Below are positions 7,872 through 64,000 of a stretch of DNA of 64,000 bases, piece by piece (the first letter of the stretch is position 1; every line of letters starts with the position of its first letter). The notes under the pieces were generated by a model, which worked only from the letters and a program-made list of their open reading frames with translations, was not told where the DNA came from and did no database searches. Position numbers and translations under genes: made by a program. Location: contig JBHPKP010000001.1 in assembly GCA_042566505.1 (NCBI GenBank), forward strand, positions 8,483 to 72,482. Direction: 5' to 3'. The stretch comes from a bacterium. Its GTDB lineage: Bacteria; RUG730; JBDRED01; JBHPKP01.

Positions 7872-9461
7872 TCAATTTCCCCACGATTTATAATCAATAT
7901 GCTGAAAAATGTTATCCATTGATTCTATTTCTTTTAAATAAGTCTCATTGATTTGGTTAGATTGAATAGCATCGTAAAGTTTCAAGAATCTATTGATATG
8001 ATCCTTTGTGCGTTTGAGCGCATATTCTGTCATTGTCCCTGTACTTAGTATAAATGCCCAGTCACTGGACTGAGCAAGTAGAAGTTCACGGCCCGCCTGA
8101 TTCAATGCTCGCTTTTTCAAGCCATAAGTATCTTTATTTTGCTGCGCTAGTTCTGTCATGAGATCGCCAATTTTATGCAAATGTCTATAGACCCAATCAT
8201 TGTCGCCATTCAACCAAAATTCATTGTAACCCTTGTTTCCCCAAGACGAACAAGTTGGCTGCTGCACTTGCAATACTTGATTTTCATTGAGGTATTCACT
8301 TGGAGTTATGGTTCTAATTGTATCCTGATCATGTTGAAGTTTTCTGAATAAGAAATTCAGGAACTTAGGTCCTTCATACCACCAATGCCCAAATAGTTCT
8401 GCATCATACGGTGCCACAATAATAGGTTTACGGTCCATTGCATCATGCAAATATTCTACCTGCTTCTGCCTGTTGAATAAAAAATTACCTGCATGCTCTG
8501 CCGCTGCTTCACATGCACTAAACGGACTATACGGCTGCTTTTGACCCATACCAACTTTGCCTGTGATTTTGTGATACTTTATTCCAATGCCTCGTTTCAC
8601 TCCATCTTCATGTAAATATGGCTTAACATAATCATACTCCAAATCATAACCTGCATCCCTATAAAATTCTCTATATCTATAATCACCCGGATACCCGGTC
8701 TCTGCACTCCATACCTGCTGCGACGATTCAATATCACGCCCAAAAACAGCCACACCTGATTCACAATAGATAGGTGAATAAATTCCATACCTCGGACGAG
8801 GCGAACCATATAGGATGCCATGTGTATCTGTAAAGAAATATTTAATATCAGAGTCTTTTAAGAACTTATCATATCCAATTCTATATCCACATTCAGGCAG
8901 CCAAATACCCTTAGGCTCACGTCCAAAGTGTACTTTATAATCCTCACATGCAACCTTGATTTGCGCTTTAACATTGTTTTCATTGATCATAAGCGGCAAG
9001 AATCCATGCGTAGCGCCGCATGTAATAATTTCCAGTTTCCCAAAATCCTGGAACTTTTTGAATGCATTTAAAAGTTTGCCATTGTATTTATCATTAAAAA
9101 TATGCCAGCAACTTTTGAATTTACTCTCATACATTTTTGCAGCTTCATAGAATGGTGTATAAAACGTCCGCTCAAGCTCCTTTTCTGAAAATTCTATATT
9201 TTTTTTAAGATGCCGCGTGTAACGCTCACATAGAAGTTCATCGGAAAGCATATTACAAAGTGTAGGAGTAAGCGACATTGTGATACGAAAATCTATACCA
9301 TGATCTATCAATCCATCAAATACTTGTATTAGTGGTATATATGTTTCAGTAATAGCTTCATATAACCAATCTTCTTCTAGAAAATCATTGTATTCCGGAT
9401 GCCTGACAAATGGCAAATGCGCATGAAGCACTAAACATAAATAACCTTTTTCATTCAACAT
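7872..9461 (-). CDS. glycoside hydrolase family 57 protein, probable 1,4-alpha-glucan branching enzyme
   Basis: N-terminal LVLHAHLPFVRHPEY motif and ~530 aa length typical of GH57 branching enzymes. Confidence 0.75.
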   Translation of the reverse strand: MLNEKGYLCLVLHAHLPFVRHPEYNDFLEEDWLYEAITETYIPLIQVFDGLIDHGIDFRITMSLTPTLCNMLSDELLCERYTRHLKKNIEFSEKELERTFYTPFYEAAKMYESKFKSCWHIFNDKYNGKLLNAFKKFQDFGKLEIITCGATHGFLPLMINENNVKAQIKVACEDYKVHFGREPKGIWLPECGYRIGYDKFLKDSDIKYFFTDTHGILYGSPRPRYGIYSPIYCESGVAVFGRDIESSQQVWSAETGYPGDYRYREFYRDAGYDLEYDYVKPYLHEDGVKRGIGIKYHKITGKVGMGQKQPYSPFSACEAAAEHAGNFLFNRQKQVEYLHDAMDRKPIIVAPYDAELFGHWWYEGPKFLNFLFRKLQHDQDTIRTITPSEYLNENQVLQVQQPTCSSWGNKGYNEFWLNGDNDWVYRHLHKIGDLMTELAQQNKDTYGLKKRALNQAGRELLLAQSSDWAFILSTGTMTEYALKRTKDHINRFLKLYDAIQSNQINETYLKEIESMDNIFQHIDYKSWGN

Positions 9462-9491
9462 ATTAACCTCATAAAATTTTGGGGGAGGCAG

Positions 9492-10091
9492 CTATTTTTT
9501 CTGTAATTCAGAAGAACTAAAATTAAATTCTGTCACTCTCTGTTTTAGCATATTAACTATTTCGTCAGACGAACCAGGAGTCTTATTTTGCAATGACTCT
9601 AAAAAAGAGCGGAATTCGTCAGTTATTTGCATCCAATTTGCATCAAATTTATCAGACACCTTATCAGACGGCATATAAATCACATTTGAACGTGCCAAAA
9701 TTACAAAATGCCCTTCATCAAATAAGTAGCCCATTTCTGCACAAAAGACCTTGCAAGCACCATCATTTGAGTCCACATACCAGTTTCTTGTCTCAAAATC
9801 CACATCAACATCAAACGAATAATGTTGGTTAGTTCCATTAAACTCAATATTGGTTATATCGTAAAATCTAATTATTGCTTGAGAAGCTGCGAAAAGTTCA
9901 AAACCATAAAAATTCAAAATTTCTTGATGATGCTTATCATTAATATCCCAATAAGCAAATATTTTAGAAGGATTGCATGGCATAATTACAAGTTTAGTTT
10001 CATTATATCTAAGCGGCAAATCGTTAGTATTTTTTCCGACTTGTTTTTGAAGAGGAGTTTGACCAAAATTTGTATTTGAGTACATGTTCAA
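9492..10091 (-). CDS. hypothetical protein (possibly the DUF4912-type partner often found beside GH57 genes)
   Basis: 199-aa ORF immediately downstream of and co-oriented with the GH57 gene. Family assignment is from memory of the GH57/DUF4912 gene pair and is not verified. Confidence 0.4.
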   Translation of the reverse strand: MNMYSNTNFGQTPLQKQVGKNTNDLPLRYNETKLVIMPCNPSKIFAYWDINDKHHQEILNFYGFELFAASQAIIRFYDITNIEFNGTNQHYSFDVDVDFETRNWYVDSNDGACKVFCAEMGYLFDEGHFVILARSNVIYMPSDKVSDKFDANWMQITDEFRSFLESLQNKTPGSSDEIVNMLKQRVTEFNFSSSELQKK

Positions 10092-18689: not shown

Positions 18690-19583
18690 ATGCTTTATAA
18701 AATATTTTATAACCCCATAGTAAGCGGTATGCGCAGCAAAAATAATGCACTCACTAAACTTACAAAGCAACTAACCAAACACAAAATCCAATTTGAAGTC
18801 GTTGCCACAACAATTGACAATACAGATGAAAAGGAACTAATTAAAAATATCAAAAAGTTTAAAGCAATAATCGTTCTCGGTGGTGATGGAACATTAAACA
18901 AAACTCTAACATATCTCATAAAAAACAAAGTATCTATCCCCATAGGTTTATTGCCTTGCGGCACTGCAAATGTTTTTGCAATCGAAAAGAAAATCCCATT
19001 CAAAATAAATGCAGCTCTTAAAGTTATATTAAATCATAATGTAAAACTACTAGATATAGGACGAGCAGCAAACAGACGCAAGATTTATTATTTTTTATTA
19101 ATGGCAGGAATTGGTTTTGACGCAAAAGCTGTGTTTGATGTAAACCCAAAAATCAAAAAATATACAAAAAAACTAGCATACATTTTGGCAGGTTTAAAGA
19201 ATTTCATAAAAAGACCTCAAAAAATTGAGGTAGAATTGCCCCTTTTAAAAAAGAAATTCCCTACAACATATGTAGTCATAACTAACAGCAGTTATTATGC
19301 AGGTAAATTTAAAATTGCACCGGATGCGGATATGGCAGACGGTTTATTTGATATGTGCCTATTTAAAGTTAAATCTAATATCGAATACTTAAAATCCATT
19401 CTACATATCGTAAAAAAAACCCATATTACAAAAAACCATATGATGCATATACAAACCGATAAATTCATGATCCGTTCAAAGGATAAACATCCTGTTTACT
19501 TCCAACTTGATGGAGAGGCCATAGGAACACTGCCCCTAAGAATAGAAATTCTTCACAAACACTTGCCCTTTTTGCTGCCATAA
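18690..19583 (+). CDS. diacylglycerol kinase catalytic-domain lipid kinase (YegS/BmrU-like)
   Basis: AIIVLGGDGTLNKTL motif of DAGK_cat. Size 297 aa. Confidence 0.8.
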   Translation: MLYKIFYNPIVSGMRSKNNALTKLTKQLTKHKIQFEVVATTIDNTDEKELIKNIKKFKAIIVLGGDGTLNKTLTYLIKNKVSIPIGLLPCGTANVFAIEKKIPFKINAALKVILNHNVKLLDIGRAANRRKIYYFLLMAGIGFDAKAVFDVNPKIKKYTKKLAYILAGLKNFIKRPQKIEVELPLLKKKFPTTYVVITNSSYYAGKFKIAPDADMADGLFDMCLFKVKSNIEYLKSILHIVKKTHITKNHMMHIQTDKFMIRSKDKHPVYFQLDGEAIGTLPLRIEILHKHLPFLLP

Positions 19584-19609
19584 CACTTGAAACTATATAT
19601 ACACCATAA

Positions 19610-19633
19610 TCCTTGAAATTTGTCAATTTCAAG
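19610..19633. terminator. bidirectional hairpin between convergent genes
   Basis: Perfect 10-bp inverted repeat CCTTGAAATT-TGTC-AATTTCAAGG between the dgk-like (+) and cvpA-like (-) genes. The half-site recurs once more 15 bp downstream. Confidence 0.45.
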
Positions 19634-19695
19634 GAGTCCAACTCCTTGAAATTAGCCTTTTTTAAGGATTTTATTGAAATGATTTAGCAAATCTA

Positions 19696-20202
19696 CTAGA
19701 TCGATTTTGGGAAAAAAGTGCCAATTTTTTTTTCGAACCTGGAAGGAAAAATTTTCGAAAGCTTATTATTGAATTTTAAAATCATACTAAATGTTTTAGC
19801 TCTATCTAGATTTATAGAGTGTATTTCATTTGGGAAGAAATTGTTCGCAACTGAATAAACACTACCAATCGACATGAATCCAATCATTACCAAAAGCACC
19901 ATACCTAAAACCCTATCTGCAGGCTTAAGAAATAATTGTTTAATAAATTTTGATAAAAGCTTGCCTATCATTACTATGATAAATGAGGATATGAAAAAGA
20001 TTATTGCGAACGAAAATAAACGTGCCCAATCATTTTGCGGGAAAATTTTCATGCCAAACATATAGAATTTTGCAGCTACAATGCTTCCTACAAATATGGA
20101 TGCAAAAAGAAAAACAACATGGATTGCGCCCAGAAAAAACCCAACACTTGCAAATCCTAAAATTAAAATAAATACAGATACATCAATTATACTCATTTTC
20201 AA
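19696..20202 (-). CDS. CvpA-family membrane protein
   Basis: 168 aa, four hydrophobic helices. N-terminus MKMSIIDVSVFILILGFASVGFFLG typical of colicin V production protein CvpA. Confidence 0.6.
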   Translation of the reverse strand: MKMSIIDVSVFILILGFASVGFFLGAIHVVFLFASIFVGSIVAAKFYMFGMKIFPQNDWARLFSFAIIFFISSFIIVMIGKLLSKFIKQLFLKPADRVLGMVLLVMIGFMSIGSVYSVANNFFPNEIHSINLDRAKTFSMILKFNNKLSKIFPSRFEKKIGTFFPKSI

Positions 20203-23353: not shown

Positions 23354-25051
23354 ATGTCCCTCAAGCAAACACTCGATAGAAGAGAAAAAAAAATATTTAA
23401 TAAAAAAAACAATCCACCTTTAAAAGGTGACACTATTGCAAAAACAATTAAAAGAAGAATAGTGTCTAGATATTATGTAAATAATTTTTCTGCACAACTT
23501 TCGTCAACACAAAACGAAACTAAAACAACTGGCACGATTATAACTGTCAGTGAAGATGGTATGACAGGTCAATTTAACCATCCTTTAAACCTATTAGAAA
23601 GAATTGATATTAAATTAATAACTCCAAAAAAAGAAGAATACCTTTGTAAAGGAAGAATAATGTGGGCAAATTCAATTGATAATAATCAATTTCAATATGG
23701 TATTGGTTTTTTAGACACTAACTCCAATAAAGAAGTGGTCCTATTCCTAAAAAATTTTATAAACAAGGAACAAAAAAATCTTCCTCAAAACGAAAGAAGG
23801 ATTAACAACAGAAGAACAAAAACAAACAACAAATTGAATGACAACAAAAGGAACACTGAGAGAAGGATAAACAAAAGTATATTTAAGAAATGTATCGCTA
23901 CTTCTAAAGTTGATTACCTTCTAAAAAAAGTCAAAGGTTTTTTTAGAGAAACTTCTACTGCAGCTGCATCAAAGATAGTCACACACGGAAGAGAAATGAT
24001 AGGCTTTAGCTCTTGTAGTTATCTTGGACTAAATAATGACACTAGAGTCAAAAATCTAATGATAAAATCTATTAAACAATACGGAACAACTACTTGCAGC
24101 TCTCCACTAGCCAGTGGCACTATGGATATTCATAATAAATTGACAAAAAAAATTGCTGAGTTTCATAAAACAGAAGACAGCATTTTATATTACATGGGAT
24201 ATTTAGCAAATCAGGGATGCTTAGGTTCTATAGTAAGCAGCCATGATTATATTCTTACTGATGAGAAAAGTCATGCCAGCATAATCGAAGGTTGTTCATT
24301 AGCCAATGGAACCTTCTTGACATATAAACATAACAATATGGATGACTTAAAAAAGCAATTAAAAAAACTTCCAGATACTGGGAAACTTATAGTAACTGAT
24401 GGAGTTTTTAGTATGGATGGAAATGTTGCTAAACTAGACGATATTTATGATTTAGCACAACAATATGATGCCGGAATTATGGTAGACGATGCTCATGGTA
24501 TAGGCGTCTTGGGAAACAATGGAGGCGGTACAGCTGAACACTTTGGACTTGAAGGTAAAATTGATATCATAATGGGTACATTTAGTAAATCAATGGCTCT
24601 AATAGGAGGATATATTACAGGAAAGAAAAGTCTTATTGATTACTTAAAGTGGACAAGTAGAGCTTTTATTTTTAATTTAAGCTTGCCACCCTATATCATC
24701 GAACCTGTTTCAAAAATTATTGATATAATTCAAAAAGAACCAAAACTAAGAGAGTGTTTATGGAATAACATTCATTATATGAAGACTGGACTGCGAGATT
24801 TAGGATTTGATATTGGAAGTCCAGATGCAGCAATAATACCAATTTGGATCAAAAATAACGAAAAAACATATAAACTAGTTGAAGAACTTGAAAAACAAGG
24901 AATCTTTGCAGATACTGCAATTTATCCCATAGTAAAAAAAAAGGAAACCATGATTCGTCTTGTTATTACAGCGGAACACAGTATAGATGATTTAAAAAAA
25001 ACAATTTCTATTTTTAAAACTGTTGGCAAAAAACATAAGTTGATTCCTTAG
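23354..25051 (+). CDS. PilZ-domain / alpha-oxoamine synthase fusion (serine palmitoyltransferase/BioF/Kbl-like PLP acyltransferase)
   Basis: N-terminal ~150 aa carry PilZ-like motifs RIVSR (RxxxR) and VSEDGMTG (DxSxxG-like), then a Lys/Asn/Arg-rich linker. The C-terminal ~370 aa are a class-II aminotransferase AOS-family domain with the PLP-lysine block GTFSKS. Preceded by GGAG RBS. Confidence 0.7.
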   Translation: MSLKQTLDRREKKIFNKKNNPPLKGDTIAKTIKRRIVSRYYVNNFSAQLSSTQNETKTTGTIITVSEDGMTGQFNHPLNLLERIDIKLITPKKEEYLCKGRIMWANSIDNNQFQYGIGFLDTNSNKEVVLFLKNFINKEQKNLPQNERRINNRRTKTNNKLNDNKRNTERRINKSIFKKCIATSKVDYLLKKVKGFFRETSTAAASKIVTHGREMIGFSSCSYLGLNNDTRVKNLMIKSIKQYGTTTCSSPLASGTMDIHNKLTKKIAEFHKTEDSILYYMGYLANQGCLGSIVSSHDYILTDEKSHASIIEGCSLANGTFLTYKHNNMDDLKKQLKKLPDTGKLIVTDGVFSMDGNVAKLDDIYDLAQQYDAGIMVDDAHGIGVLGNNGGGTAEHFGLEGKIDIIMGTFSKSMALIGGYITGKKSLIDYLKWTSRAFIFNLSLPPYIIEPVSKIIDIIQKEPKLRECLWNNIHYMKTGLRDLGFDIGSPDAAIIPIWIKNNEKTYKLVEELEKQGIFADTAIYPIVKKKETMIRLVITAEHSIDDLKKTISIFKTVGKKHKLIP

Positions 25052-25069
25052 TAAATGGAGAAATAATAA

Positions 25070-27799
25070 ATGTATTTAATAATTCTATTCCCAATAGCAT
25101 TTGTAACTTTTTTTATTTTTGTTGGAATATTTAAAATACGTAAAAATTATTTTTTAAAAAATTATTTTATTTCTTTCAATGTTATAACCTTGATTTGGCT
25201 ATTAACTAACTTTTTTTGTTTGTATACAGGTGTTGGCTTTTTATGGTTTAAACTAGCCTACGCAACAGGTGCATTAGTACTCTGCACTACCTTTTTACTT
25301 ATTTTAAGTTTCTCAAAACAAGCAAAATTATCAAATTTCACATTATTAAAAATATATTTAATTGGAGGTTCCTTTTTCACATTATCTCTTTTTGACAACA
25401 TTTTTTTTAAAGGAAAATCTGAAACTTATACAGATTTATTTCTTGTATATTTTATATCACTCATAGGATTATTATTGTTTTCTTTATATAAAATATATAT
25501 CGTATCTAAAAATTTTCAAGGAATTAAAAAGTTACAAGCACGTTATATTTTCTTAGGATTATTCACATTTATTTTTGTCAGCTCACTTATGAGCTTTTGG
25601 TCACCTCTTCTTTTTGATTTTCCAGAACTAGGAAGATATGACTTTTTTGGACAACTTTTTTTCATAGGTTTTACAGGATATGCAATCATCCAGTATAAAC
25701 TTTTGGATATTGACCTTGTCTGGCGTTACACTTCCAGCTATTTACTGTACTTTTTTCTTGGTTCATCACTCTTTGTTTCTATTCTTTTTAGTGTCCGAGA
25801 TTGGTTTTATTCAATCTTAGTAGTCTGTGTCTCATTTGTAGCCTTCTTACCCTTTCTTCATAAATTGATATTGAAATTTGCAAACAACATATTATTAAAA
25901 AAATACAATAGGGTTTGGGATGACTTAAACAAACAAGGATATGAAGATGAGGTTTTTGGCACAACGAAAAAATTAATTAGTAAAAGATTAAACAACATCC
26001 TAAGGCAGCTAAAATTAGCAAATGGCAGCTTCTTTATATTTAAAGAACAAAGTGATAACTATATTTTATTTGAACATCAGGGTAACCAAGGTTCAAAAAA
26101 TATGCGGATTAACTCAAGCAATAAAATTATTGAATATTTAAAGTTTACTAAACAACCTCTAATGAAAGATTTAATTGTTAATGATGATAAAACAGATATT
26201 TTAAGTACAATGGACGAACTAAATGCTGAAATAGCATTCCCTGTTTTCTTAAGTTTTAAACTAATCGGAATACTCTTCCTTGGTCCAAAAATCACAAATA
26301 ATATTTTCAACCCAACTGATATTAACGCTATTGTAGGCATCATCAAACGAACCGAACCAAAGTTAAAGCAAACACTTTACCTAGAACAGCAAGAACAATT
26401 AATGGAAGCATCCAAGAAAATGAGCGAAATAAAAGAACTCAATAAACTTGCAAAATACATTGTTCACACTTTCATGCGTTCTTTAAATTCTGTGAATGCT
26501 TCTATTTATATTTACAATGAAAAAGAAAGTAACTATACAAAAGCTTATGAAAAAGGACTCCTGCAAAACAATAAAGACATTGCATTCAAACATGATGATC
26601 ACTTTATCAAATATCTAACACAACGAGGATCTCCATTACTTTATAATGATATACATAGATGGGCAGAAGAAACAAGATCAGAAGAACTTAAAAATGTTGC
26701 AAAAAAATCTGCCGATATACACGCACAAATAACTATTCCAATGATTTATGAAAAACTTTTAGGGTTTGTTGTATTGGGTGAAAAACGAGTTTTCAAAACA
26801 TATTCGTACGAAGAAATAAACACCTGCAATATACTTGCTTCAGCTGCATCTACAAATATCCACAACATCATCTTGGCAGAGGAAGCTATGCGTGACCCAT
26901 TAACAAATTTGTACAATAGAAAACACTTTAGCGCACTTGTAAAAGAAAGCATTCTCAAATCAATTAAAATCCAAAAACCTCTTTCGTTTATCATTATTGA
27001 CCTTGACCACTTTAAACAATACAATGATGATTTTGGACATCAATATGGTGATACAATTCTTGAAAAATTTTCAAACTATATTGTGCGAAGCATCAGACCC
27101 GCTGATATTGCAGTAAGATATGGTGGTGAAGAATTTGTGCTTATCCTACCTAACACAAACAGTGAAGGTGCGCAAGTTTTCTGCAACCGTCTGCAAGCAA
27201 GCTTAAAAGACGAACCTGTAATAAGTGACATAACAATGAGTATTGGAATTGGAAGCTTCATACCTGAAAAACGTGAAGAAGACGAAATTTATCCTCTTGA
27301 TATTGACAGAATGAAGAATCAACTCATAAAAGTAGCAGATGCAGCTGTTTATAAAGCAAAGAAAAATGGAAGAGATCAAATATACGTCGGAGAAGAACTT
27401 TTGGAACGAAGTATATTAACAAAGAAGAATGAATATAAAATAAAAATTGCAATAATAATTCCTGACGATATAACTGCTCGCAAAACCAGCCACACACTCC
27501 AATTATTAGGATGTGATACACATGTATTTAATACGGGTCGTGATGGTTTAAGATTTATGGATCAATCTAGTCCGGACATAGTTTTGATGTCCCTTGACTT
27601 GCCAGATGTAGATGGAGTTGAAATCATCAGACAAATGGCAATAAAATATATCACTACAATAAAAGCTATTCTAGCCACAACCAACAAAGCTCACCTACGC
27701 GAAGAAATGCTTGAACTTGGAGTACAAGGATTCTTCCTCGAGCCTCTCAAACCACAAGATATTGAAGCATGGATTAAGTATATTAAAGAGATGATTTAA
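25070..27799 (+). CDS. 7TM receptor-GAF-GGDEF diguanylate cyclase with C-terminal receiver domain
   Basis: N-terminal polytopic membrane domain, central GAF-like region, GGDEF domain with intact active site RYGGEEF and I-site RPAD, C-terminal REC domain (DD pair, LMSLDLPD, T, K). Starts 19 bp after the PilZ-AOS gene. Confidence 0.8.
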   Translation: MYLIILFPIAFVTFFIFVGIFKIRKNYFLKNYFISFNVITLIWLLTNFFCLYTGVGFLWFKLAYATGALVLCTTFLLILSFSKQAKLSNFTLLKIYLIGGSFFTLSLFDNIFFKGKSETYTDLFLVYFISLIGLLLFSLYKIYIVSKNFQGIKKLQARYIFLGLFTFIFVSSLMSFWSPLLFDFPELGRYDFFGQLFFIGFTGYAIIQYKLLDIDLVWRYTSSYLLYFFLGSSLFVSILFSVRDWFYSILVVCVSFVAFLPFLHKLILKFANNILLKKYNRVWDDLNKQGYEDEVFGTTKKLISKRLNNILRQLKLANGSFFIFKEQSDNYILFEHQGNQGSKNMRINSSNKIIEYLKFTKQPLMKDLIVNDDKTDILSTMDELNAEIAFPVFLSFKLIGILFLGPKITNNIFNPTDINAIVGIIKRTEPKLKQTLYLEQQEQLMEASKKMSEIKELNKLAKYIVHTFMRSLNSVNASIYIYNEKESNYTKAYEKGLLQNNKDIAFKHDDHFIKYLTQRGSPLLYNDIHRWAEETRSEELKNVAKKSADIHAQITIPMIYEKLLGFVVLGEKRVFKTYSYEEINTCNILASAASTNIHNIILAEEAMRDPLTNLYNRKHFSALVKESILKSIKIQKPLSFIIIDLDHFKQYNDDFGHQYGDTILEKFSNYIVRSIRPADIAVRYGGEEFVLILPNTNSEGAQVFCNRLQASLKDEPVISDITMSIGIGSFIPEKREEDEIYPLDIDRMKNQLIKVADAAVYKAKKNGRDQIYVGEELLERSILTKKNEYKIKIAIIIPDDITARKTSHTLQLLGCDTHVFNTGRDGLRFMDQSSPDIVLMSLDLPDVDGVEIIRQMAIKYITTIKAILATTNKAHLREEMLELGVQGFFLEPLKPQDIEAWIKYIKEMI

Positions 27800-27868
27800 C
27801 AAGTTAACACTTGACGTAACTAACACAAACTCTTTCATACGAGGAATTTCAAATGTTACTTTTGGGAA
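27799..27868 (+). repeat. intergenic repeat family copy B (3'-truncated)
   Basis: ACAAGTTAACACTTGACGTAACTAACACAAACTCTTTCATACGAGGAATTTCAAATGTTACTTTTGGG. Near-identical to copy A at 34436 and inverted copy D at 63641 but lacking ~24 nt. Confidence 0.7.
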
Positions 27869-27894
27869 TTAAGATTGGCCTTAATTTTTAATTA

Positions 27895-29970
27895 TTATCC
27901 GACTTTTATGAGTACCATATCAGTGCCGAATCGTTTGGATAGTTTGTTTTTTAGAAGTATATTTTCTTGGGAGGTTAGTTCAAAATCATTCCGAAGTACT
28001 TTTTTGCTGGCTGACCGAGCCAAACTTATGATGTGCGAATCTTGCAAAAGATCGCCTATTCGTAATTCCGGTAGGCCGTGCTGCCTGCCTCCGATAAATT
28101 CACCAGGACCGCGAAGCCTTAAATCCTCATCTGCAATCATGAATCCATCATTGTGATTCACAAGCGCTTTCAATCTTCTGACTGCATCCGGAATTTTCAC
28201 ATTGCTTACGAGGAAACACTTTGATTCATGAACCCCTCTCCCCACACGCCCTCTAAGCTGATGGAGCGTGGCAAGTCCAAAACGTTCTGCATGCTCAATA
28301 ATCATTACTGTTGCATTTGGAACATCAATGCCTACCTCAATAACAGTTGTTGCAACTAATATTTTAATTTTGCCGGATTTAAAATCACTCATTACTTGAT
28401 TTTTTTCTATAGTAGGAAGCTTTCCATGCAAAAGTCCAATTTCCACACCCGGAAAAACATTCTGCCTCAAATATTCACACATAGCAGTAGCGGCCCTCAG
28501 CTCCAACTTATTCTCATCAACTGCCGGATACACAACATATCCCTGCCTGCCTTTTGAAACCTCTTCTTGTAAGGCAGCAAATGCTTGCTTCTGAGATGCT
28601 ATTTTAGTTGCAATTTTTTTTCTACCCTTTGGGAGTTCCCGTATGGTGGATACATCCAAATCACCATAAACAGTTAATGCAAGTGTACGTGGAATTGGTG
28701 TTGCAGTCATGACCAAAACATCGGGCACAAATCCCTTACGTCTCAAGTTCAGCCTCTGATACACTCCAAATCTATGCTGTTCATCAATAATAATAAGTGC
28801 AAGATTTTTAAATTTCACGTCATCACTTATAAGTGCGTGTGTTCCAACAATAATATCTATCTCACCATTTTCAAGACGAGCCAAAATATCAGTTTTTTCT
28901 TTTTTCTTCATACTTCCAACCAAAAATCCAACTTTTACATCCAAGTCTTTGGTGTATTCTTTTATCGAAAGATAATGCTGCTCTGCCAAAACTTCTGTTG
29001 GAGCCATCAAAGCGCCCTGCAATCCATTCTCAATGCCAAGTAAAAGCGCAGAGAGCGCAACAACTGTTTTTCCGGACCCCACATCACCTTGAAGCAATCT
29101 ATTCATTGGAGCTGCGCATGCCATATCATCAAAAATTTCGTTTATTACGTGCTTTTGGCAGTTGGTAAATTCAAAAGCTAATGATTTTTTGAACGGTGTT
29201 AAAAGATTTTTTTTAATTTTATATGTGTGCGATTTTTCTTCTTTTTTCGCAAGCTGTCTTTGTCTAAGCAGCGCACATTCCAAAAGAAAAAACTCGTCGA
29301 ATACGAGCCGTTTGTAAGCCTGATTCTTTAAATCAATTGAGTCTGGGAAATGTATGTTTCGGATTGCATGTTTTAGAGGCAAAAAATTATGCTCTTGGAT
29401 TATTTGGTCCGGCAGATGGTCAATCACTTCACTCAGAGCATTTTGCTCCAACACCTGTTTCACGAGCGAACGAACAAACTTATTATCTACATTTTCTGTA
29501 AGTGAGTATACAGGAATCACTCGCCCTGTATTCGAAAGATTTTCAGCCGAATCATTTACCTCATACTCAATAACCTTTATGCCTTCCCAATCAACTGTTC
29601 CTGTTAAAAATAGTTTTATCCCGCATGCAAGTTGCTTCTTTAAATAGTGAAATACATCGTACTTATAACTTCTACGTCTGAACCAATATGCATTCAACAC
29701 ACCTGTTCCGTCATCAATCGCTGCTTTGAATATCACCATACCCGAACGAGTAGATATAACCTCATTGTGCACGATCTCACCAAAAACTGTTGCAGTCTCC
29801 GCAACTGAAATATCATTAATCTTTTGAATCGTGCTGCGATCAATCCATGTTCGTGGAAAATAGTAGAGCAAGTCCTTTACTGACAAAATGCCTAATTTCT
29901 CAAGCAACTTGGCACGTTTTGGACCAACACCCTTTAAATATTGTACATGTGTATCGAGTTTGTTCTGCAT
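27895..29970 (-). CDS. recG: ATP-dependent DNA helicase RecG
   Basis: Probable start at internal Met (MQNKLDTHVQYLKGVGPKRAKLLEKLGI). Wedge domain and DEQH helicase motifs (GDVGSGKT, DEQHRFGV) present. Confidence 0.9.
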   Translation of the reverse strand: MQNKLDTHVQYLKGVGPKRAKLLEKLGILSVKDLLYYFPRTWIDRSTIQKINDISVAETATVFGEIVHNEVISTRSGMVIFKAAIDDGTGVLNAYWFRRRSYKYDVFHYLKKQLACGIKLFLTGTVDWEGIKVIEYEVNDSAENLSNTGRVIPVYSLTENVDNKFVRSLVKQVLEQNALSEVIDHLPDQIIQEHNFLPLKHAIRNIHFPDSIDLKNQAYKRLVFDEFFLLECALLRQRQLAKKEEKSHTYKIKKNLLTPFKKSLAFEFTNCQKHVINEIFDDMACAAPMNRLLQGDVGSGKTVVALSALLLGIENGLQGALMAPTEVLAEQHYLSIKEYTKDLDVKVGFLVGSMKKKEKTDILARLENGEIDIIVGTHALISDDVKFKNLALIIIDEQHRFGVYQRLNLRRKGFVPDVLVMTATPIPRTLALTVYGDLDVSTIRELPKGRKKIATKIASQKQAFAALQEEVSKGRQGYVVYPAVDENKLELRAATAMCEYLRQNVFPGVEIGLLHGKLPTIEKNQVMSDFKSGKIKILVATTVIEVGIDVPNATVMIIEHAERFGLATLHQLRGRVGRGVHESKCFLVSNVKIPDAVRRLKALVNHNDGFMIADEDLRLRGPGEFIGGRQHGLPELRIGDLLQDSHIISLARSASKKVLRNDFELTSQENILLKNKLSKRFGTDMVLIKVG

Positions 29971-30266: not shown

Positions 30267-31949
<1,683 letters not shown>

Positions 31950-32237
31950 TTATCCGATTATTGCAATGACATCGTCTTGGCTAACAATCATAAAATCTTC
32001 TCCATTAACCTTGACTTCTTTGCCTGCATATTTTTCATACATAACTTTATCACCAACTTTAATTTCCATTGGGATAATGCTGCCAGCTTCATTTTTTTTG
32101 CCTGCACCCACTGCAACAATTTCGCCTTCATTTGGTTTTTGTTTCGCAGTATCAGGAATAATGATACCACTTTTAGTTTTTTCTTCTCCTTTTCCCACCT
32201 TTACAATAACTCTGTCACCTAGAGGTTTTAAATTCAT
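31950..32237 (-). CDS. groS: co-chaperonin GroES
   Basis: 95 aa, MNLKPLGDRVIVK..., mobile loop present. Confidence 0.95.
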   Translation of the reverse strand: MNLKPLGDRVIVKVGKGEEKTKSGIIIPDTAKQKPNEGEIVAVGAGKKNEAGSIIPMEIKVGDKVMYEKYAGKEVKVNGEDFMIVSQDDVIAIIG

Positions 32238-32265: not shown

Positions 32266-32292
32266 TTAGCACTCTGGCTATTTGAGTGCTAA
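32266..32292. promoter_or_regulatory. CIRCE operator (HrcA binding site) upstream of groES
   Basis: TTAGCACTC-N9-GAGTGCTAA, a perfect match to the CIRCE consensus, 29 bp upstream of the groES start. Confidence 0.8.
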
Positions 32293-32363
32293 TTATATTT
32301 AAAACCATTTTTTATGTCAATATTTTTTTTATCGTCGAGGAAATGTATAAAATAATGGCTGCT

Positions 32364-32390
32364 TTAGCAGTCTTGAGGTTTGAGTGCTAA
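32364..32390. promoter_or_regulatory. second, slightly degenerate CIRCE element
   Basis: TTAGCAGTC-N9-GAGTGCTAA (one mismatch), ~100 bp upstream of the first CIRCE. Confidence 0.55.
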
Positions 32391-32475
32391 TTTACTAGGC
32401 TTTTAGCAATTTAGCGATTTCTTTTGGGAATATATGCAAATTAATAACATCTCGATCTTTTGTTATTAAACCTAT

Positions 32476-34357: not shown

Positions 34358-34431
34358 TACGCCATATAGGACTTGAACCTATAACCTACTGATTAAGAGT
34401 CAGTTGCTCTACCAATTGAGCTAATGGCGCG
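34358..34431 (-). tRNA. tRNA-Lys (anticodon CTT)
   Basis: Reverse complement shows GCTC/GAGC D-stem, anticodon loop CTCTTAA, T-arm ATAGG-TTCAAGT-CCTAT, acceptor stem with G1-U72, A73. Ends approximate to within 1-2 nt. Confidence 0.75.
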
Positions 34432-34435
34432 AAAC

Positions 34436-34523
34436 AAATTAACACTTGACGTGACTAACACAAACTCTTTCATACGAGAAATCTCAATCGTTCCTGCGTC
34501 ACTTAAACAAATGTTACTTTTAT
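34436..34523 (+). repeat. intergenic repeat family copy A (full length), the spacer between tRNA-Arg and tRNA-Lys
   Basis: ~88-bp element TTAACACTTGACGTGACTAACACAAACTCTTTCATACGAGAAATCTCAATCGTTCCTGCGTCACTTAAACAAATGTTACTTTTATG with potential long imperfect hairpin (TTAAGTGACG...CGTCAAGTGTTAA). Confidence 0.7.
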
Positions 34524-34555
34524 GTTTTTTTCAAATTCTACAATTAATTAAAAAT

Positions 34556-34629
34556 TACGCCCGGTGCGACTCGAACGCACGACCTGCGGATTCGAAGTCC
34601 GACGCTCTATCCAACTGAGCTACGGGCGC
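34556..34629 (-). tRNA. tRNA-Arg (anticodon TCG)
   Basis: Reverse complement: acceptor GCGCCCG, D-arm GCTC-AGTTGGATA-GAGC (A20 present), anticodon loop CTTCGAA, T-arm GTGCG-TTCGAGT-CGCAC, A73. Confidence 0.7.
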
Positions 34630-34903
34630 ATAGATAATGAAAATTTATTTTTCAAAAAACGAATAACGTATATTATTTTTCTTTTATTTCTAGTTTTGCC
34701 AATGCTTTTTTTGCAAGCAACTCTCCAAACAATTCAGGATTTTCTTCCATAGTTACTTCTTTTTTTTGTGTATTTGGATAATAATAATCTTTGTATTGTT
34801 TTATAGTTCTAAATTCTTTAACTTTGTTCTGATATTTTTCATTCAATATCGGTATAATATAAAAATTAAAGTTAAAAATCCAGAGCCAATTATAATAGTA
34901 CAT

Positions 34904-37137: not shown

Positions 37138-37587
37138 TCACAAAATGTATTTAGAATAATTTGTTTTTATCCATTTAGTAACCAATTTTACAAATTTTTC
37201 TGTTTCTTCTATTAATTCCTCAACTTCAGTCTCCGAAACACCCCATGCATGAGTATAATCGATAATATTTCTTTTGTTTCGACAAGAATCAAAATAGTCA
37301 GCTAGATCAATATACTCTTTTCCCATAATTTCTTTCATTGCTTGAAAAACTGTAGAATGATGTCCTACACCTTTTGTTTTGTATCCGACACAATATAATA
37401 ATACTGTAGCTGTTTGTAATGCTGCATTATATGCAGTTGCAAGTCTTCTATCTTCTGATATAGCTTCAACTTTTGAATCTTTAATGTCTCTTTTAATTAG
37501 TTCCAATAAACTAATCACTTCATCTTTTGATGTAGAATGAGGAATTAATCTACCTTGGTTTAACAATATTTTTAAAGTCATCTTCAT
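37138..37587 (-). CDS. HEPN-domain protein (toxin component of HEPN/MNT pair)
   Basis: 149 aa, all-helical, RNKRNIIDYTH = Rx4-6H HEPN motif. Overlaps the upstream NTase gene by 38 nt. Confidence 0.6.
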   Translation of the reverse strand: MKMTLKILLNQGRLIPHSTSKDEVISLLELIKRDIKDSKVEAISEDRRLATAYNAALQTATVLLYCVGYKTKGVGHHSTVFQAMKEIMGKEYIDLADYFDSCRNKRNIIDYTHAWGVSETEVEELIEETEKFVKLVTKWIKTNYSKYIL

Positions 37588-38140
37588 TTCCTATAATAAA
37601 AATCTTTTTTGTTTTAAGTATGCTTAAAACAAAGTGATTTTTTTTACGTATCTTTTCTCTAAATTCTTTTTTAGTAAATACAACATAATTTATTTCACGT
37701 GCTAATTCTTTTTGAGGCTTTGATAATATTTTTGAAATCTGTCTAGATGTTACAGTGCCAATTACAAAAATATCTATATCACTTGATTTTTGTATGGCTC
37801 CTTTTGCATATGAACCATAAACAAACACTACTTCAATATCTTGTGTTTTTTTAAGGTGATTTTTTAATTCTTCGGCAATCCCTGCACTTTTTATAAATAT
37901 ATTTTTTAAATCTTCATAAATAATAAAAGATTCATTAACTCTATAATAAACACTTTTACCTTGTATTGATTTTGATAAGAATCCTATTTCCTCAAGTTTT
38001 TTAACCTCTCTTTGTACAGAACGAATACTTTCGTTTGTGAGAGACGAAATCTCTCTTTGGTAAAAGCTGCCTTTAGGATTTAATAGTAAAAGTTTTAATA
38101 TATTTACACGTGCTTTTGATGAGAATAAGGTTTGCAGCAT
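37550..38140 (-). CDS. minimal nucleotidyltransferase (MNT) with N-terminal winged-helix domain (antitoxin component)
   Basis: N-terminal ArsR/wHTH-like segment, then NTase motif VYGSYAKGAIQKSSDIDIFVIG (GS...DxD). Confidence 0.65.
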   Translation of the reverse strand: MLQTLFSSKARVNILKLLLLNPKGSFYQREISSLTNESIRSVQREVKKLEEIGFLSKSIQGKSVYYRVNESFIIYEDLKNIFIKSAGIAEELKNHLKKTQDIEVVFVYGSYAKGAIQKSSDIDIFVIGTVTSRQISKILSKPQKELAREINYVVFTKKEFREKIRKKNHFVLSILKTKKIFIIGNEDDFKNIVKPR

Positions 38141-45338: not shown

Positions 45339-45500
45339 TTACGCCTCTATTTCGAATTGATCTTTTCCAACTCCACAAACCGGACACACCCAATCCTCTG
45401 GCAAATCATTGAATAAAGTGCCTGGTTCAATATCTGCAGATGCATCTCCATCAACCGGATTGTAAACATAACCACAAATTTTACAAATGTATTTTTCCAT
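45339..45500 (-). CDS. rubredoxin
   Basis: [15 protein letters not shown]...[15 protein letters not shown] with two CxxCG knuckles. Start placed at the internal Met preceded by GGAGG. Confidence 0.85.
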
Positions 45501-45604
45501 TTTCCACCTCCAATCCTCACTCCGCTTTCTCCCAATCCCCAATCAAGTTGAGGATAACAAAGGAAAGGAGAATTCAGTGAGGATAAATTTTTTATTTCAG
45601 AAGT

Positions 45605-45680
45605 TAGTAACTTGCAACTTTTTAACATGAACTCTTTCATACGAGCCGCAAAAATCGCTCCTGCGTCGCTCAGTTCGTGA
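45605..45680 (+). repeat. diverged copy C of the intergenic repeat family
   Basis: Shares the cores GAACTCTTTCATACGAG and TCGCTCCTGCGTCGCT with copies A/B/D. Flanks diverged. Confidence 0.45.
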
Positions 45681-45704
45681 TAAAAACAACAGTTTTTCAA
45701 ATTT

Positions 45705-46226
45705 CTATACAAGTAAATTACCTGTTTTTATAAATGTTGGTGCGCTCGACGGTGACTTTCCTTTTTTTACATGATGATAATATGCATAGGTCATTGGTGA
45801 AACATTTTTTAAAATTTCAGCATTTACAATTTTGCCAAAAAACACAGTGTGCGTAACTGCATCCGCACTACCCGAAACCTCCACTTCCAAATAAGCTGCT
45901 GAATTTTCCACAACAATTGGCGCACCTGTAACCCCAAGTTTATGTTCCGTACCTTCAAACTTATCAAACTCTCTGCCGCACCTAAATCCAAACTTCCCAA
46001 TAAATGTCATCGGAGTTTCTTCTTCCAAAATTGATACTGTAAACAATTTACTCTTTTCAATATATTCATGTGTACAATTTTTTTTATTGATACTGATTGC
46101 GAGTATTGCCGGATCTGCTGCAACCTGAAAAACAGAATTCGCAATTTGACCATTATATTTATCGTCGGATATTGAACTCACAATATACATTCCATAACTT
46201 AATAAATTTAATGCTTCTACGTTCAT
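45705..46226 (-). CDS. flavin reductase-like (FMN-binding split-barrel) domain protein
   Basis: 173 aa. Flavin_Reduct-like N-terminal signature (LSYGMYIVSS...GQIANSV) and size. Confidence 0.6.
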   Translation of the reverse strand: MNVEALNLLSYGMYIVSSISDDKYNGQIANSVFQVAADPAILAISINKKNCTHEYIEKSKLFTVSILEEETPMTFIGKFGFRCGREFDKFEGTEHKLGVTGAPIVVENSAAYLEVEVSGSADAVTHTVFFGKIVNAEILKNVSPMTYAYYHHVKKGKSPSSAPTFIKTGNLLV

Positions 46227-49911: not shown

Positions 49912-49936
49912 TGAACCCTCCTGGTATAATCCTCAC

Positions 49937-49952
49937 TACAAATATTTGTAGA
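49937..49952. promoter_or_regulatory. 16-bp perfect palindrome immediately upstream of the small regulator gene
   Basis: CTACAAATATTTGTAG, 26 bp upstream of the ORF start, adjacent to the shared AGTGAGGATT motif. Confidence 0.35.
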
Positions 49953-49954
49953 TA

Positions 49955-51590
49955 GAATTATTTATTATTTTTATAATTTAAAAGTTCTTTTAAGCTAGGA
50001 AGACAGCTTGCATCCCTCCTTATAGAGCCTTCGGCTACTATTCAAGAAAGACTGTTGCTTCCTACTAAGCTAACTGGGAATATTTATTTAGGATGATATG
50101 GGGTTCGGTTGCTACCAAATTACCATTTATTACCCAGGCTATATTGAGTTAGTTCTTGTAGGAATTTCTTCCAAAACTTTTAAAGATCAATTTTAATTTT
50201 AGGAGGCAAAAACTATGTTTTATCTTGGCATTGATATTGCTAAATCTTCCGCTCGCTATGTCTTACTCGACAATGACGGCGAAAAAGCTCACAAAGCTTT
50301 CACTCTCCGAAACTCTAACGATGATTTTGAGAAACTTCTTAGTTTTCTAAAAAAGTTTAATCTTGATCATCAAAATTTATTAATCGGCATCGAAGCTACT
50401 GGCATTTGGTGGGAAAATATTTTTTCCTTTTTAACACAAAACAATTTTAAAATTGTTTTGTTAAATCCTCACCAAACTAAAAAATTCAGAGAAGCTCTCA
50501 GATTAAAAGCTAAAACCGACGACATTGATGCCTTTGTTATCGCAGGTCTATTGCGTTCTAATCAATTTTCTGCAAGCTTTATTCCTGAAGAAAATATTCA
50601 AACTTTAAGAGAAACCACTAAACTTCGTTATCAACTTATGCAAAATTTAAAAAATTATGAGCGACAAGTTTTTAGTTTACTCGGTCTAATTTTTCCTGAA
50701 TATGAAAAATCTCCTCTTAAAAATCCTTTTTCTATTTCAGCAATCTCTATTTTTAAAGCTTTTCCAACTGCCAAACATCTAGCAGATGCTAAACCTAAAC
50801 AAATTGAAAAAATTGTTCGTTCAATAAAAGGCAATACACTTAATATCGATCGTATTCAAGAACTTATTAATATTGCCAAAAAATCTATTTATTCCGGTCG
50901 AGCTAAAATTTCTCGTGGCATGAATTTGAATATTTTGCTTGCTCAAATCCAACAACTTTTCAAATCCATTGCTCAACTCGATTCTGAAATTGATTCAATT
51001 TTATCGCCAAACAATGACGATGATTTAAATTTTCCCGGTGCCAATCTTTTAACGATTCCAGGAGTTGGACCAAAAACCGTTGCAGCTATTTTATCTGCTG
51101 TCGGGATTGATGGAAAAACTTTTAAATCTGTTACACAATTTATTGGCCACATTGGTTTTTATCCACAAATTTATCAATCCGGCGAAACTAAACGTGACAA
51201 CAAAATTTCTAAACAAGGACCCTCTTATTTACGGCATGCTCTTTATATTTCTGCTGTCGCATGTCTAAGACATAATCCTGAATTTAAAAATTTGTACAAC
51301 AAAAAATGTTCGCAAGGTAAAAAACCTAAACAAGCTCTAATTTGTGTCGCTAAAAAAATTGCAGAGCTTTGTTTAAGTATGCTTAAAAGCGGTGAAGTTT
51401 ATCTTCCTCAACGCGTTTTTATGCAAACTTAATTTCTGTACACTTTACTCGTTCTTTGACATGTTTCTATTTTAAAAGAGCAATTTTTTGCTTTACTTCT
51501 TATAGGATGTCTTTGTAACGAGAATTTTTTTATTAAATTTAATTTATTCTAAGGGATAAGTGAGATAAGAGCAAGCAAAAATTCATTTAC
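49955..51590 (+). mobile_element. IS110-family insertion sequence (ends approximate)
   Basis: Single transposase ORF with ~300-bp upstream and ~160-bp downstream non-coding flanks, the usual IS110 layout. No terminal inverted repeats are evident, as expected for the family. Confidence 0.55.
50215..51432 (+). CDS. IS110-family transposase
   Basis: N-terminal DEDD RuvC-like domain (MFYLGIDIAKSS..., IGIEATG, DDIDA) and C-terminal HhH transposase_20-like region. Strong RBS AGGAGG. Confidence 0.85.
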   Translation: MFYLGIDIAKSSARYVLLDNDGEKAHKAFTLRNSNDDFEKLLSFLKKFNLDHQNLLIGIEATGIWWENIFSFLTQNNFKIVLLNPHQTKKFREALRLKAKTDDIDAFVIAGLLRSNQFSASFIPEENIQTLRETTKLRYQLMQNLKNYERQVFSLLGLIFPEYEKSPLKNPFSISAISIFKAFPTAKHLADAKPKQIEKIVRSIKGNTLNIDRIQELINIAKKSIYSGRAKISRGMNLNILLAQIQQLFKSIAQLDSEIDSILSPNNDDDLNFPGANLLTIPGVGPKTVAAILSAVGIDGKTFKSVTQFIGHIGFYPQIYQSGETKRDNKISKQGPSYLRHALYISAVACLRHNPEFKNLYNKKCSQGKKPKQALICVAKKIAELCLSMLKSGEVYLPQRVFMQT

Positions 51591-51593
51591 ATT

Positions 51594-55363: not shown

Positions 55364-55754
55364 TGGTGGAGGTGGCGGGAATTGAACCCGCGTCCAGAAA
55401 TACGTCAGCAGCAACATCTACAAGCTTAGCTAAAATGTTTATCTCACTGCCAGTCCCACATTTAGCAAAGGAACATCTGACAGCCAGCCGAAAATGTCCA
55501 TTTTATGTCCGGCACATAAAATGTAAGTCCTCTGCTTTAGACCTTATTCCCATCCGAAGACAAAACGGAAAGGGCCCGCTGCTTAAATTAAGCAGCTATT
55601 GCCATAGGCATTACCATTGTTGGCGCAACCTGCGGCATTACGTTGAATACTTTGTTTTCAGCGTTTACTGTTTTAGGCGATTTTTAACGAGTTTATCGAC
55701 TAACCTCGACCTGCATTACTACCTCTATTATCCCTGTCGAAACCGATCACCCCC
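55364..55754 (-). ncRNA. ssrA: tmRNA (ssrA)
   Basis: Minus strand 5' end GGGGGTGATCGGTTTCGACAGGG and 3' end GCGGGTTCAATTCCCGCCACCTCCACCA (tRNA-like domain, CCA encoded). Internal tag reading frame ends ...MAIAA-TAA. smpB lies immediately downstream. Confidence 0.8.
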
Positions 55755-55794: not shown

Positions 55795-56262
55795 TTATGC
55801 TTTAAAACCTTTAATGTTTTTCATTTCACGTTCAAGGTCTCGTTTTTTTATTGTTTCACGTTTATCGTACAGTTTTTTTCCTTTTACCAATGCAATCTTC
55901 ATTTTCGCATATCCGCGTTTATTGAAGAAAATCTCAAGCGGAACAACAGATAATCCTTTTTCTTTTACCTTGCCCATGAGCTTTGAAATCTCACGTTTAT
56001 GCAAAAGAATCTTTCGAGTCCGCTCAGGCTCGTAATCATCATCTCTTGTTGCATGTGAGTATCTGCTTATATGCATCTTCACTATGAACGCTTCTTCATT
56101 CTTGAAACGTACATAACTGTCCTTTAAGTTTGCCTTACCTGCTCTAAGTGATTTCACTTCCTGTCCAATAAGTTGTATGCCAGCTTCGAAATCTTCAACT
56201 ATAAAATAATCATGATATGCTTTTCTATTTGATGCAACTGCTTTCATTATATTATACCACAC
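55795..56262 (-). CDS. smpB: SsrA-binding protein SmpB
   Basis: 155 aa, conserved SmpB sequence (NRKAYHDY...KMHISRYSH... C-terminal basic tail). Confidence 0.9.
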   Translation of the reverse strand: MWYNIMKAVASNRKAYHDYFIVEDFEAGIQLIGQEVKSLRAGKANLKDSYVRFKNEEAFIVKMHISRYSHATRDDDYEPERTRKILLHKREISKLMGKVKEKGLSVVPLEIFFNKRGYAKMKIALVKGKKLYDKRETIKKRDLEREMKNIKGFKA

Positions 56263-63508: not shown

Positions 63509-63640
63509 AGTTTTTTCCTCCTATTTTTTTAAAAATTCTTCAAAATTTATCAGTAGCTGGTAGATTTGTCAAGTTGATAATTTTTCTATTTAGTTTGCTT
63601 TTTATTAATTTGTTGCAAGAGGAATTTGAAAAAAACATAA

Positions 63641-63728
63641 AAGTAACATTTGTTTAAGTGACGCAGGAACGACTGAAATTCTTCGCATGAAAGAGTTTGT
63701 GTTAGTCACGTCAAGTGTTAACTTGTTT
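63641..63728 (-). repeat. intergenic repeat family copy D (full length, inverted)
   Basis: Reverse complement ACAAGTTAACACTTGACGTGACTAACACAAACTCTTTCATGCGAAGAATTTCAGTCGTTCCTGCGTCACTTAAACAAATGTTACTTT is ~95% identical to copy A. Confidence 0.7.
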
Positions 63729-63828: not shown

Positions 63829-64000
63829 TCAGAATTGCATTTGAATTTTTCTTAATCTTTTGAAACGATCTGCAACTATTTTCAATAATGTTTCTTTTTC
63901 CAGATTAGAAAGAATCGAGCTATCTATTAAATTTCCTTTCACAACTTTTTTTGGAATTTCTAAATATTCAGCAAATTTTTGAAAATCTCTTCCTGTTATC
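63829..64000 (-). CDS. 3' end of an unidentified CDS (5' part lies beyond the window)
   Basis: Minus strand is open from the window edge to a TGA at 63829: ...ITGRDFQKFAEYLEIPKKVVKGNLIDSSILSNLEKETLLKIVADRFKRLRKIQMQF*. Convergent with hppA. Confidence 0.35.
   Translation of the reverse strand, partial: ITGRDFQKFAEYLEIPKKVVKGNLIDSSILSNLEKETLLKIVADRFKRLRKIQMQF

Follow-up and report, generated by a model that had tools for sequence, protein, structure and literature searches.

Internal-indel variants are known among the ERIC sequences, whose copy numbers are also known and are conserved across genera, and we know of no dedicated transposase for them. ERIC, or enterobacterial RU-1, sequences are 127-bp imperfect palindromes located in transcribed intergenic regions (see PMC2759123; PMC3184786). 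REPINs are doublets of REP sequences that form hairpins and are mobilised by RAYT (PMC3116915). Prokaryotic MITEs are <500 bp, AT-rich and intergenic, give stem-loop transcripts and occur in size variants, which in Correia and QMITE carry internal deletions and keep the outer arms (PMC10969869).

In this report, a repeat family from a deep-branching Elusimicrobiota MAG is described and compared with these systems. The analysis covers a window, the whole 64,000-nt stretch of DNA, in which four related copies are found. By its sequence the repeat forms a family without a match to anything searched here. On balance we consider the copies to be probably small, non-coding, non-autonomous mobile elements of the MITE/ERIC/REPIN type that are specific to this Elusimicrobiota lineage.

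Host and genomic background

The Dxs protein encoded in the window is identical to NCBI MFC1566246.1, encoded on a contig of 83,734 bp, and the next best Dxs matches, which are annotated as Elusimicrobiota or Endomicrobia, are at most 64% identical. The genome is AT-rich (30-38% G+C in the window). Along 1-64000 the GC skew is negative in 15 of 16 4-kb intervals and is ~0 at 24001-28000, and the minus strand carries nearly all of the genes. This makes it probable that the window belongs to a single replichore in which the minus strand is the leading one.

Several other features of the window were recorded. Two inverted repeats, TTAGCACTC-N9-GAGTGCTAA, which we take to be of the CIRCE type (HrcA operator consensus), are located 98 nt apart at 32266-32294 and 32364-32392, upstream of groES (31950-32237, minus strand) and groEL (30267-31916, minus strand). 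The HEPN (37138-37587) and nucleotidyltransferase (37550-38140) genes overlap on the minus strand (37138-38140) and are a typical HEPN/MNT toxin-antitoxin pair. The tmRNA gene (55364-55754, minus strand, tag AENKVFNVMPQVAPTMVMPMAIAA) is directly downstream of smpB (55795-56262, minus strand). Additionally, a 30-nt inverted repeat that is 80% complementary and has a 3-nt loop (19608-19670) lies between convergent genes (18690-19583, plus strand; 19696-20202, minus strand) and is possibly a bidirectional terminator.

Copies of the repeat

Exactly four related copies of the repeat are present in the window, at 27.8, 34.4, 45.6 and 63.6 kb. The method by which each was delimited is given in brackets.

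27798..27870, minus strand: internal-deletion variant with the tail lost (repeat finder, HMM, alignment)
34432..34554, minus strand: full-length copy (repeat finder, HMM, alignment)
about 45595..45709, minus strand: diverged, full-length copy (HMM, alignment)
63602..63728, plus strand: full-length copy, inverted relative to the other three (repeat finder, HMM, alignment)

A profile HMM of the four copies run on the window with nhmmer gave E-values of 9e-32, 1e-31, 6e-26 and 1e-21, with the next match at E>2, and sub-motif searches of the window recovered no additional fragments. The 16-mer AACTCTTTCATACGAG occurs three times exactly (27828, 34463 and 45630) and once with two mismatches (63682-63697, minus strand), a count that was reached in none of 100 dinucleotide-preserving shuffles. 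An earlier, sequence-only reading of this DNA had placed the repeat at the same four sites; the HMM finds exactly these, and the shuffles place the repeat far beyond chance. The same reading described a core that is identical in all copies, which does not hold since the 63.6-kb copy reads AACTCTTTCATGCGAA.

The unit had also been given as 88 bp, which is too short. Local alignment of the 34.4-kb and 63.6-kb copies extends over 107 nt without a gap and over ~123-127 nt with one indel (34432-34554 and 63602-63728). The repeat finder reported the same two copies as an inverted pair (34432-34538 and 63622-63728) of 107 nt that is 94% complementary, in which all six differences are transitions and five of them fall within 17 nt at the apex. 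It also reported a direct pair (27798-27860 and 34433-34495) of 63 nt with 89% identity. The 45.6-kb copy has kept the blocks GAAATTTGAAAAAC, GCGACGCAGGAGCGATT, CTCGTATGAAAGAGTT and TAACTT (minus strand), and weak similarity may reach ~45722. In the 27.8-kb copy 22-23 internal nucleotides (GTCGTTCCTGCGTCACTTAAAC) are missing, while the outer arms are kept; the similarity resumes at AAATGTTACTTTT and then diverges, which identifies this copy as an internal-deletion variant whose tail has also been lost. It had been called 3'-truncated, and the tail is indeed gone, but the internal deletion means that it is not a simple truncation.

The repeat unit is thus ~107-127 bp long and AT-rich, within the size of <500 bp that characterizes MITEs. 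As is also characteristic of MITEs, the copies are dispersed and intergenic, occur in both orientations (three of the four in the same one) and have unrelated flanks.

A strand-specific hairpin

The proposal that the full element folds into a long imperfect hairpin was confirmed for one strand only. The minus (tRNA) strand of the 34.4-kb copy folds at -23.2 kcal/mol (z -2.25) and its plus strand at -9.1 kcal/mol (z +0.19). For the inverted 63.6-kb copy the plus strand folds at -22.2 kcal/mol (z -1.36) and the complement at -11.2 kcal/mol. Shuffled sequence folds as well as the complementary strand, and the asymmetry arises because several of the pairs are G-U. Below, the hairpin-competent sequence is called the minus form and the poorly folding one the plus form.

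The inner domain of the 34.4-kb, 63.6-kb and 45.6-kb copies has the same closing helices, of 5+3+4 pairs, in each single-sequence minimum-energy fold, and RNAalifold on a hand alignment returned the same helices. When the pairs were counted, with four bulge A's removed from the 45.6-kb copy so that MAFFT kept the register, all 12 closing pairs were formed in the three sequences; one of them has changed in a compensatory way (U-A to C-G) and three have become wobbles by a change on one side. In the apical mini-helix the 34.4-kb and 63.6-kb copies differ by another compensatory change (G-C to A-U), made up of two of their six transitions. Covariation across the copies had been put forward as a check on the element. 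The helix is maintained with compensatory changes, but the covariation score was reached by 57 of 500 shuffles and, with three sequences, is not significant. The apical blocks of the 45.6-kb copy are kept at 16/16 and 15/17 positions and its arms have drifted. The 27.8-kb copy is without the 5' arm of the inner helix.

The tRNA-Arg/tRNA-Lys spacer

The 34.4-kb copy fills the spacer between two tRNA genes located upstream of dxs.

34555..34630, minus strand: tRNA-Arg(TCG), upstream flank of the copy
34358..34430, minus strand: tRNA-Lys(CTT), downstream flank of the copy

Both tRNA genes are on the minus strand, as had been read from the sequence, and the copy stops 1 nt short of the tRNA-Lys 5' end. 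No promoter-like site was found between the two tRNA genes, so transcription of tRNA-Lys most likely runs through the repeat.

The nearest relative with DNA to compare (L015, GCA_043820025.1) has the same order of tRNA-Arg(TCG), tRNA-Lys(CTT) and dxs, and its spacer is 12 nt compared with 124 nt here. This spacer looks like an empty orthologous site, as would be expected for a MITE insertion, in a relative whose Dxs is 64% identical. In the relatives L018/L019 the same spacer is 85 nt, AT-rich and unrelated to the repeat, which indicates that the length of the spacer is labile in this group. Given this and the 64% identity of the Dxs proteins, other routes by which the spacer could have grown are conceivable.

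It had been suggested that the repeat might turn out to be a locally duplicated tRNA spacer. Towards tRNA-Lys the similarity between copies ends 1 nt short of the 5' end of the tRNA, and towards tRNA-Arg it ends at about the 3' end of that tRNA. The other three copies carry no tRNA sequence with them, and both observations argue against a simple duplication of the spacer.

A different stretch of ~500 bp was seen in L015 at 9140-9640, just upstream of tRNA-Arg. Long inverted repeats (gcggcacccccgctgtaaaatag ... ctattttacagcgggggtgtcgc) bound this stretch and more palindromes lie inside it; it probably represents another kind of mobile or repeat element that occupies this tRNA locus.

Gene context of the other copies

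The 27.8-kb copy is located between the convergent GGDEF-REC gene (plus strand) and recG (minus strand), at the GGDEF-REC stop and facing the 3' end of recG, which agrees with the context originally described. It begins within the GGDEF-REC stop codon TAA (27797-27799), whose two A's are the first bases of the copy. The 63.6-kb copy is located between hppA and the gene upstream of it, 100 nt downstream of that gene's TGA (63829-63831) and upstream of an hppA promoter-like sequence, TTGACA-17-TAAATT (63572-63544); the hppA start codon is at 63508. These two genes had been described as convergent, but both are on the minus strand, and the transcribed strand of this copy is the poorly folding one.

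The 45.6-kb copy is inside an operon, between the flavin reductase and rubredoxin genes as reported before. Both genes are on the minus strand and the copy overlaps the TAG stop codon of flavin reductase (45705-45707).

45339-45500, minus strand: rubredoxin, with the classic CxxCG...CPxCG sequence

Thus two of the four copies abut a stop codon (TAA of GGDEF-REC, TAG of flavin reductase), which indicates that insertions either extend right up to the end of a gene or provide its stop. The repeat had been said to sit at convergent junctions, but only one of the four copies does so. The last six codons and the stop of flavin reductase (TGNLLV*) lie in sequence that is weakly similar to the flank of the repeat.

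Most homologues of the 173-aa flavin reductase (region 45339-46226) are ~229-aa fusions with a C-terminal rubredoxin ('high molecular weight rubredoxin'), and the repeat lies exactly between the two genes that encode these domains separately here. Fission of such a fused gene by the repeat was considered. The syntenic orthologues in relatives, in which Ogg is followed by flavin reductase, are 168-171 aa long, stand alone and end 4-5 residues past APTF(V/I)K, and separate 53-aa rubredoxin genes are also found in such flavin reductase clusters. Because the orthologues stand alone and separate rubredoxin genes are common, the fission reading is not preferred. In the 5' untranslated stretch of rubredoxin (45503-45595, minus strand) a 9-bp perfect inverted repeat, ATCCTCACT ... 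AGTGAGGAT, was observed, together with pyrimidine-rich CCTC/CTCC runs that face a strong Shine-Dalgarno sequence, GGAGGTGG. This stretch may be a translational control structure.

Searches for homologues, coding capacity and signals

Across the window only the tRNAs and the tmRNA pass the Rfam gathering thresholds, with none at the repeat, and at E<=10 nothing meaningful overlaps the repeat around the tRNA spacer. The core pattern TAACANNAACTCTTTCATNCGA matched five times in 185,579 species genomes and nine times in the JGI metagenomes, all by chance as judged from the flanks, and neither collection included the window's own genome; in IMG/VR there were no matches. Blastn against plasmids and phages gave no match to the repeat, and an HMM search of the relatives' loci gave nothing below E=1.

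A single frame is open across the plus form for 35-40 codons, and it has no word triplets in common with any of 5.8 billion proteins. The small peptide MKEFVLVTSSVNLF was rejected as a product, as it has no Shine-Dalgarno sequence and is not conserved in the 45.6-kb copy. No copy has coding capacity. Scans for promoter-like and terminator-like sites found none inside any of the four copies. Readings as a DGR, a CRISPR or an att site were likewise discarded, as there is neither a reverse transcriptase nor an array, and the copies contain no tRNA fragment.

One transposase was found among the ORFs examined, which were 50 of the 57 ORFs of at least 120 aa in the window and two shorter ones (the seven omitted overlap longer ORFs on the opposite strand). 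It belongs to the IS110 family, and no RAYT was found in this set.

50215-51432, plus strand: IS110-family transposase (PF01548 + PF02371)

The region around this element (49930-51593) includes a ~285-nt non-coding 5' region before the transposase gene that could encode a bridge RNA; Rfam gave no match to it. A link of the repeat to the IS110 element or to the putative bridge-RNA region was examined and rejected, as only chance 8-9-mers are shared.

A probable small non-autonomous mobile element

The dispersed copies in both orientations, the unrelated flanks, the hairpin on one strand, the deletion variant and the 12-nt spacer of the relative favor a MITE-like reading of the repeat. The open frame without relatives, the lack of an Rfam match and the lack of an own promoter or terminator count for it as well. 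The repeat had previously been likened to a REP/MITE or small-RNA element. The former likeness is favored here. As to the latter, no promoter-like or terminator-like site was found in the copies and the covariation is only suggestive.

A single long, imperfect palindrome would make up the unit, its outer arms being GTAACATTTG / CAAGTGTTAAC and its inner arms GTGACGCA.GAAC / GTTT.TGT..GTCAC, and the unit would also carry a leader, GAATTTGAAAAAAAC, that is asymmetric and A-rich. A transposase whose gene lies outside the window, elsewhere in the genome, would recognize the hairpin or the inverted arms and copy the unit in trans into AT-rich gene ends and spacers in either orientation. Single-stranded DNA recognition by a Y1/HUH enzyme would suit a hairpin that is strand-specific and tolerates wobble pairs. 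Having no promoter or terminator of its own, the inserted unit would be passively read through. The 34.4-kb copy would be transcribed within the tRNA-Arg/tRNA-Lys precursor and excised as the tRNA ends mature (RNase P and 3'-end processing), such that its hairpin RNA would exist at least transiently, and the 45.6-kb copy would form a hairpin inside the flavin reductase/rubredoxin mRNA. We infer these steps of transposition in trans, co-transcription and processing from the arrangement of the copies.

Several observations count against a mobile element. Clean terminal inverted repeats are absent: the inverted arms TTAACACTTG / CAAATGTTAC agree at 8 of 10 positions and are sub-terminal, with conserved sequence 25-40 nt past the right arm. 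No convincing target-site duplication is present at the copies. A TTAAYTTGT-like direct repeat is found near both ends of the 34.4-kb, 63.6-kb and 45.6-kb copies; it is the same motif in all of them and its 3' occurrence is part of a hairpin arm. No related autonomous IS or cognate transposase, the usual partner of a MITE, was found in the window, and only four copies are visible there. Additionally, the internal blocks of the 45.6-kb copy are better kept than neutral decay predicts.

Alternative explanations

One alternative is that the repeat is a functional structured RNA family, a small RNA or cis-acting element whose active form is the hairpin-competent minus form. RNase P and 3'-end processing would free the hairpin from the tRNA-Arg/tRNA-Lys precursor, or the hairpin would act within mRNAs, and a protein or a second RNA would be bound by its conserved apical blocks, GACGCAGGARCGAUU and CUCGUAUGAAAGAGUU. 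The strand-specific fold with several G-U pairs is consistent with this, as are the 12-bp closing helix that is 100% paired in three distinct sequences with compensatory and wobble changes, the same helices found independently in the single-sequence minimum-energy fold of the 45.6-kb copy, the apical blocks that this copy has kept while its arms drift, and the near certainty that the 34.4-kb copy is transcribed in its tRNA spacer. Against these stand the lack of significance of the covariation in three sequences, the 63.6-kb copy that is antisense to local transcription, the 27.8-kb copy that has lost the 5' arm of the inner helix, and the absence of a promoter or terminator of its own from every copy, of an Rfam match and of a homologue in the relatives' loci or the collections scanned. 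We regard this explanation as rather unlikely. It is distinctly unlikely that the hairpin is a selected structured RNA or a domesticated mobile hairpin in which the apical blocks and the covarying closing helix are functional; examples would be a stable small RNA from the tRNA precursor or a processing or stability signal in the flavin reductase-rubredoxin operon.

The plus form ends in a T-rich run, and the repeat could in principle be a terminator-like element of the SPRITE-like kind in which the plus-form hairpin followed by ACTTTTATGTTTTTTT ends transcription of the upstream gene. The positions of the 27.8-kb copy, directly after the GGDEF-REC stop, and of the 63.6-kb copy, after the upstream gene and before the hppA promoter-like site, would fit such a role. 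The plus-form hairpin is, however, weak (-9 to -11 kcal/mol, z>0), no copy was picked out by the terminator scan, and most of the T-run is lost in the 27.8-kb copy. The orientation fits in two of the four copies, the plus form being antisense to the sole local transcription in the 34.4-kb and 45.6-kb copies, and we consider this explanation very unlikely. Mobility could be dispensed with if the copies were a few local duplications or gene conversions of the tRNA spacer, or an operator shared upstream of the genes of a regulon. Only four copies are seen and all are within 36 kb, no transposase or target duplication has been demonstrated, and the 63.6-kb and 45.6-kb copies are upstream of hppA and rubredoxin, respectively. 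A non-mobile origin is nonetheless highly improbable in view of the remaining evidence: neither tRNA nor other flanking sequence travels with the copies, both orientations are present, the sites differ in kind (the 3' end of a gene, a tRNA spacer, a position within an operon and one upstream of a promoter), a unit of 110-125 bp far exceeds the size of an operator, and its core is not palindromic.

Significance

Intergenic regions are shaped by small hairpin repeats, which can provide stop codons and processing sites and act as markers of genome dynamics. To our knowledge almost no such repeats have been described for Elusimicrobiota. The family provides a concrete case of a repeat inside a tRNA operon, which must be transcribed and then removed, and the 45.6-kb copy provides a second case inside an oxidative-stress operon. 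If many genomic copies and a matching transposase exist, the family would extend the catalogue of MITEs in a routine way; if selection acts on the apical blocks, it would illustrate the recruitment of a mobile hairpin as an RNA element.

Comparison with known repeat systems

The repeat shares with intrinsic-terminator-like (SPRITE-like) repeats a hairpin and a T-run at gene ends on one strand. It differs from them in its weak stem of A-U pairs, in not scoring as terminator-like and in that two of the four copies run antisense to transcription.

Like REPINs, the repeat is a hairpin unit of ~100 nt that is strand-specific and tolerates G-T/G-U wobbles. Unlike in REPINs, its arms do not each correspond to a 20-40-nt REP that has a palindrome of its own, and they align only as one long imperfect palindrome with indels. 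There is also no conserved GTAG-type tetranucleotide, as the bases 5' of the leader vary (GTAG, ATAG, AGAG), and the window has no RAYT gene. Typical REPs are G+C-rich whereas the genome here is AT-rich.

ERIC is unrelated to the repeat in sequence and in phylum, and the copies visible here are four in one contig. The two are alike in size, in forming a single long imperfect palindrome, in their transcribed intergenic sites and in having internal-indel variants.

In comparison with prokaryotic MITEs (such as Correia/NEMIS of Neisseria, RUP of S. pneumoniae, QMITE1/2 of Coxiella and Chunjie of Geobacter), the repeat has no sequence similarity to anything searched, was seen in one Elusimicrobiota MAG only and has arms that are sub-terminal and imperfect, no clear target-site duplication and no parent IS in the window. 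Like them, the repeat is <500 bp, AT-rich and non-coding, is located at intergenic and gene-end sites in both orientations and would be transcribed as a long stem-loop (PMC10969869). It also shares with them size variants that arise by internal deletion or end loss and copies that abut or supply stop codons (PMC10969869; PMC3184786). The family is new, and it is best filed under a kind that is well known, the small hairpin-forming intergenic mobile repeats.
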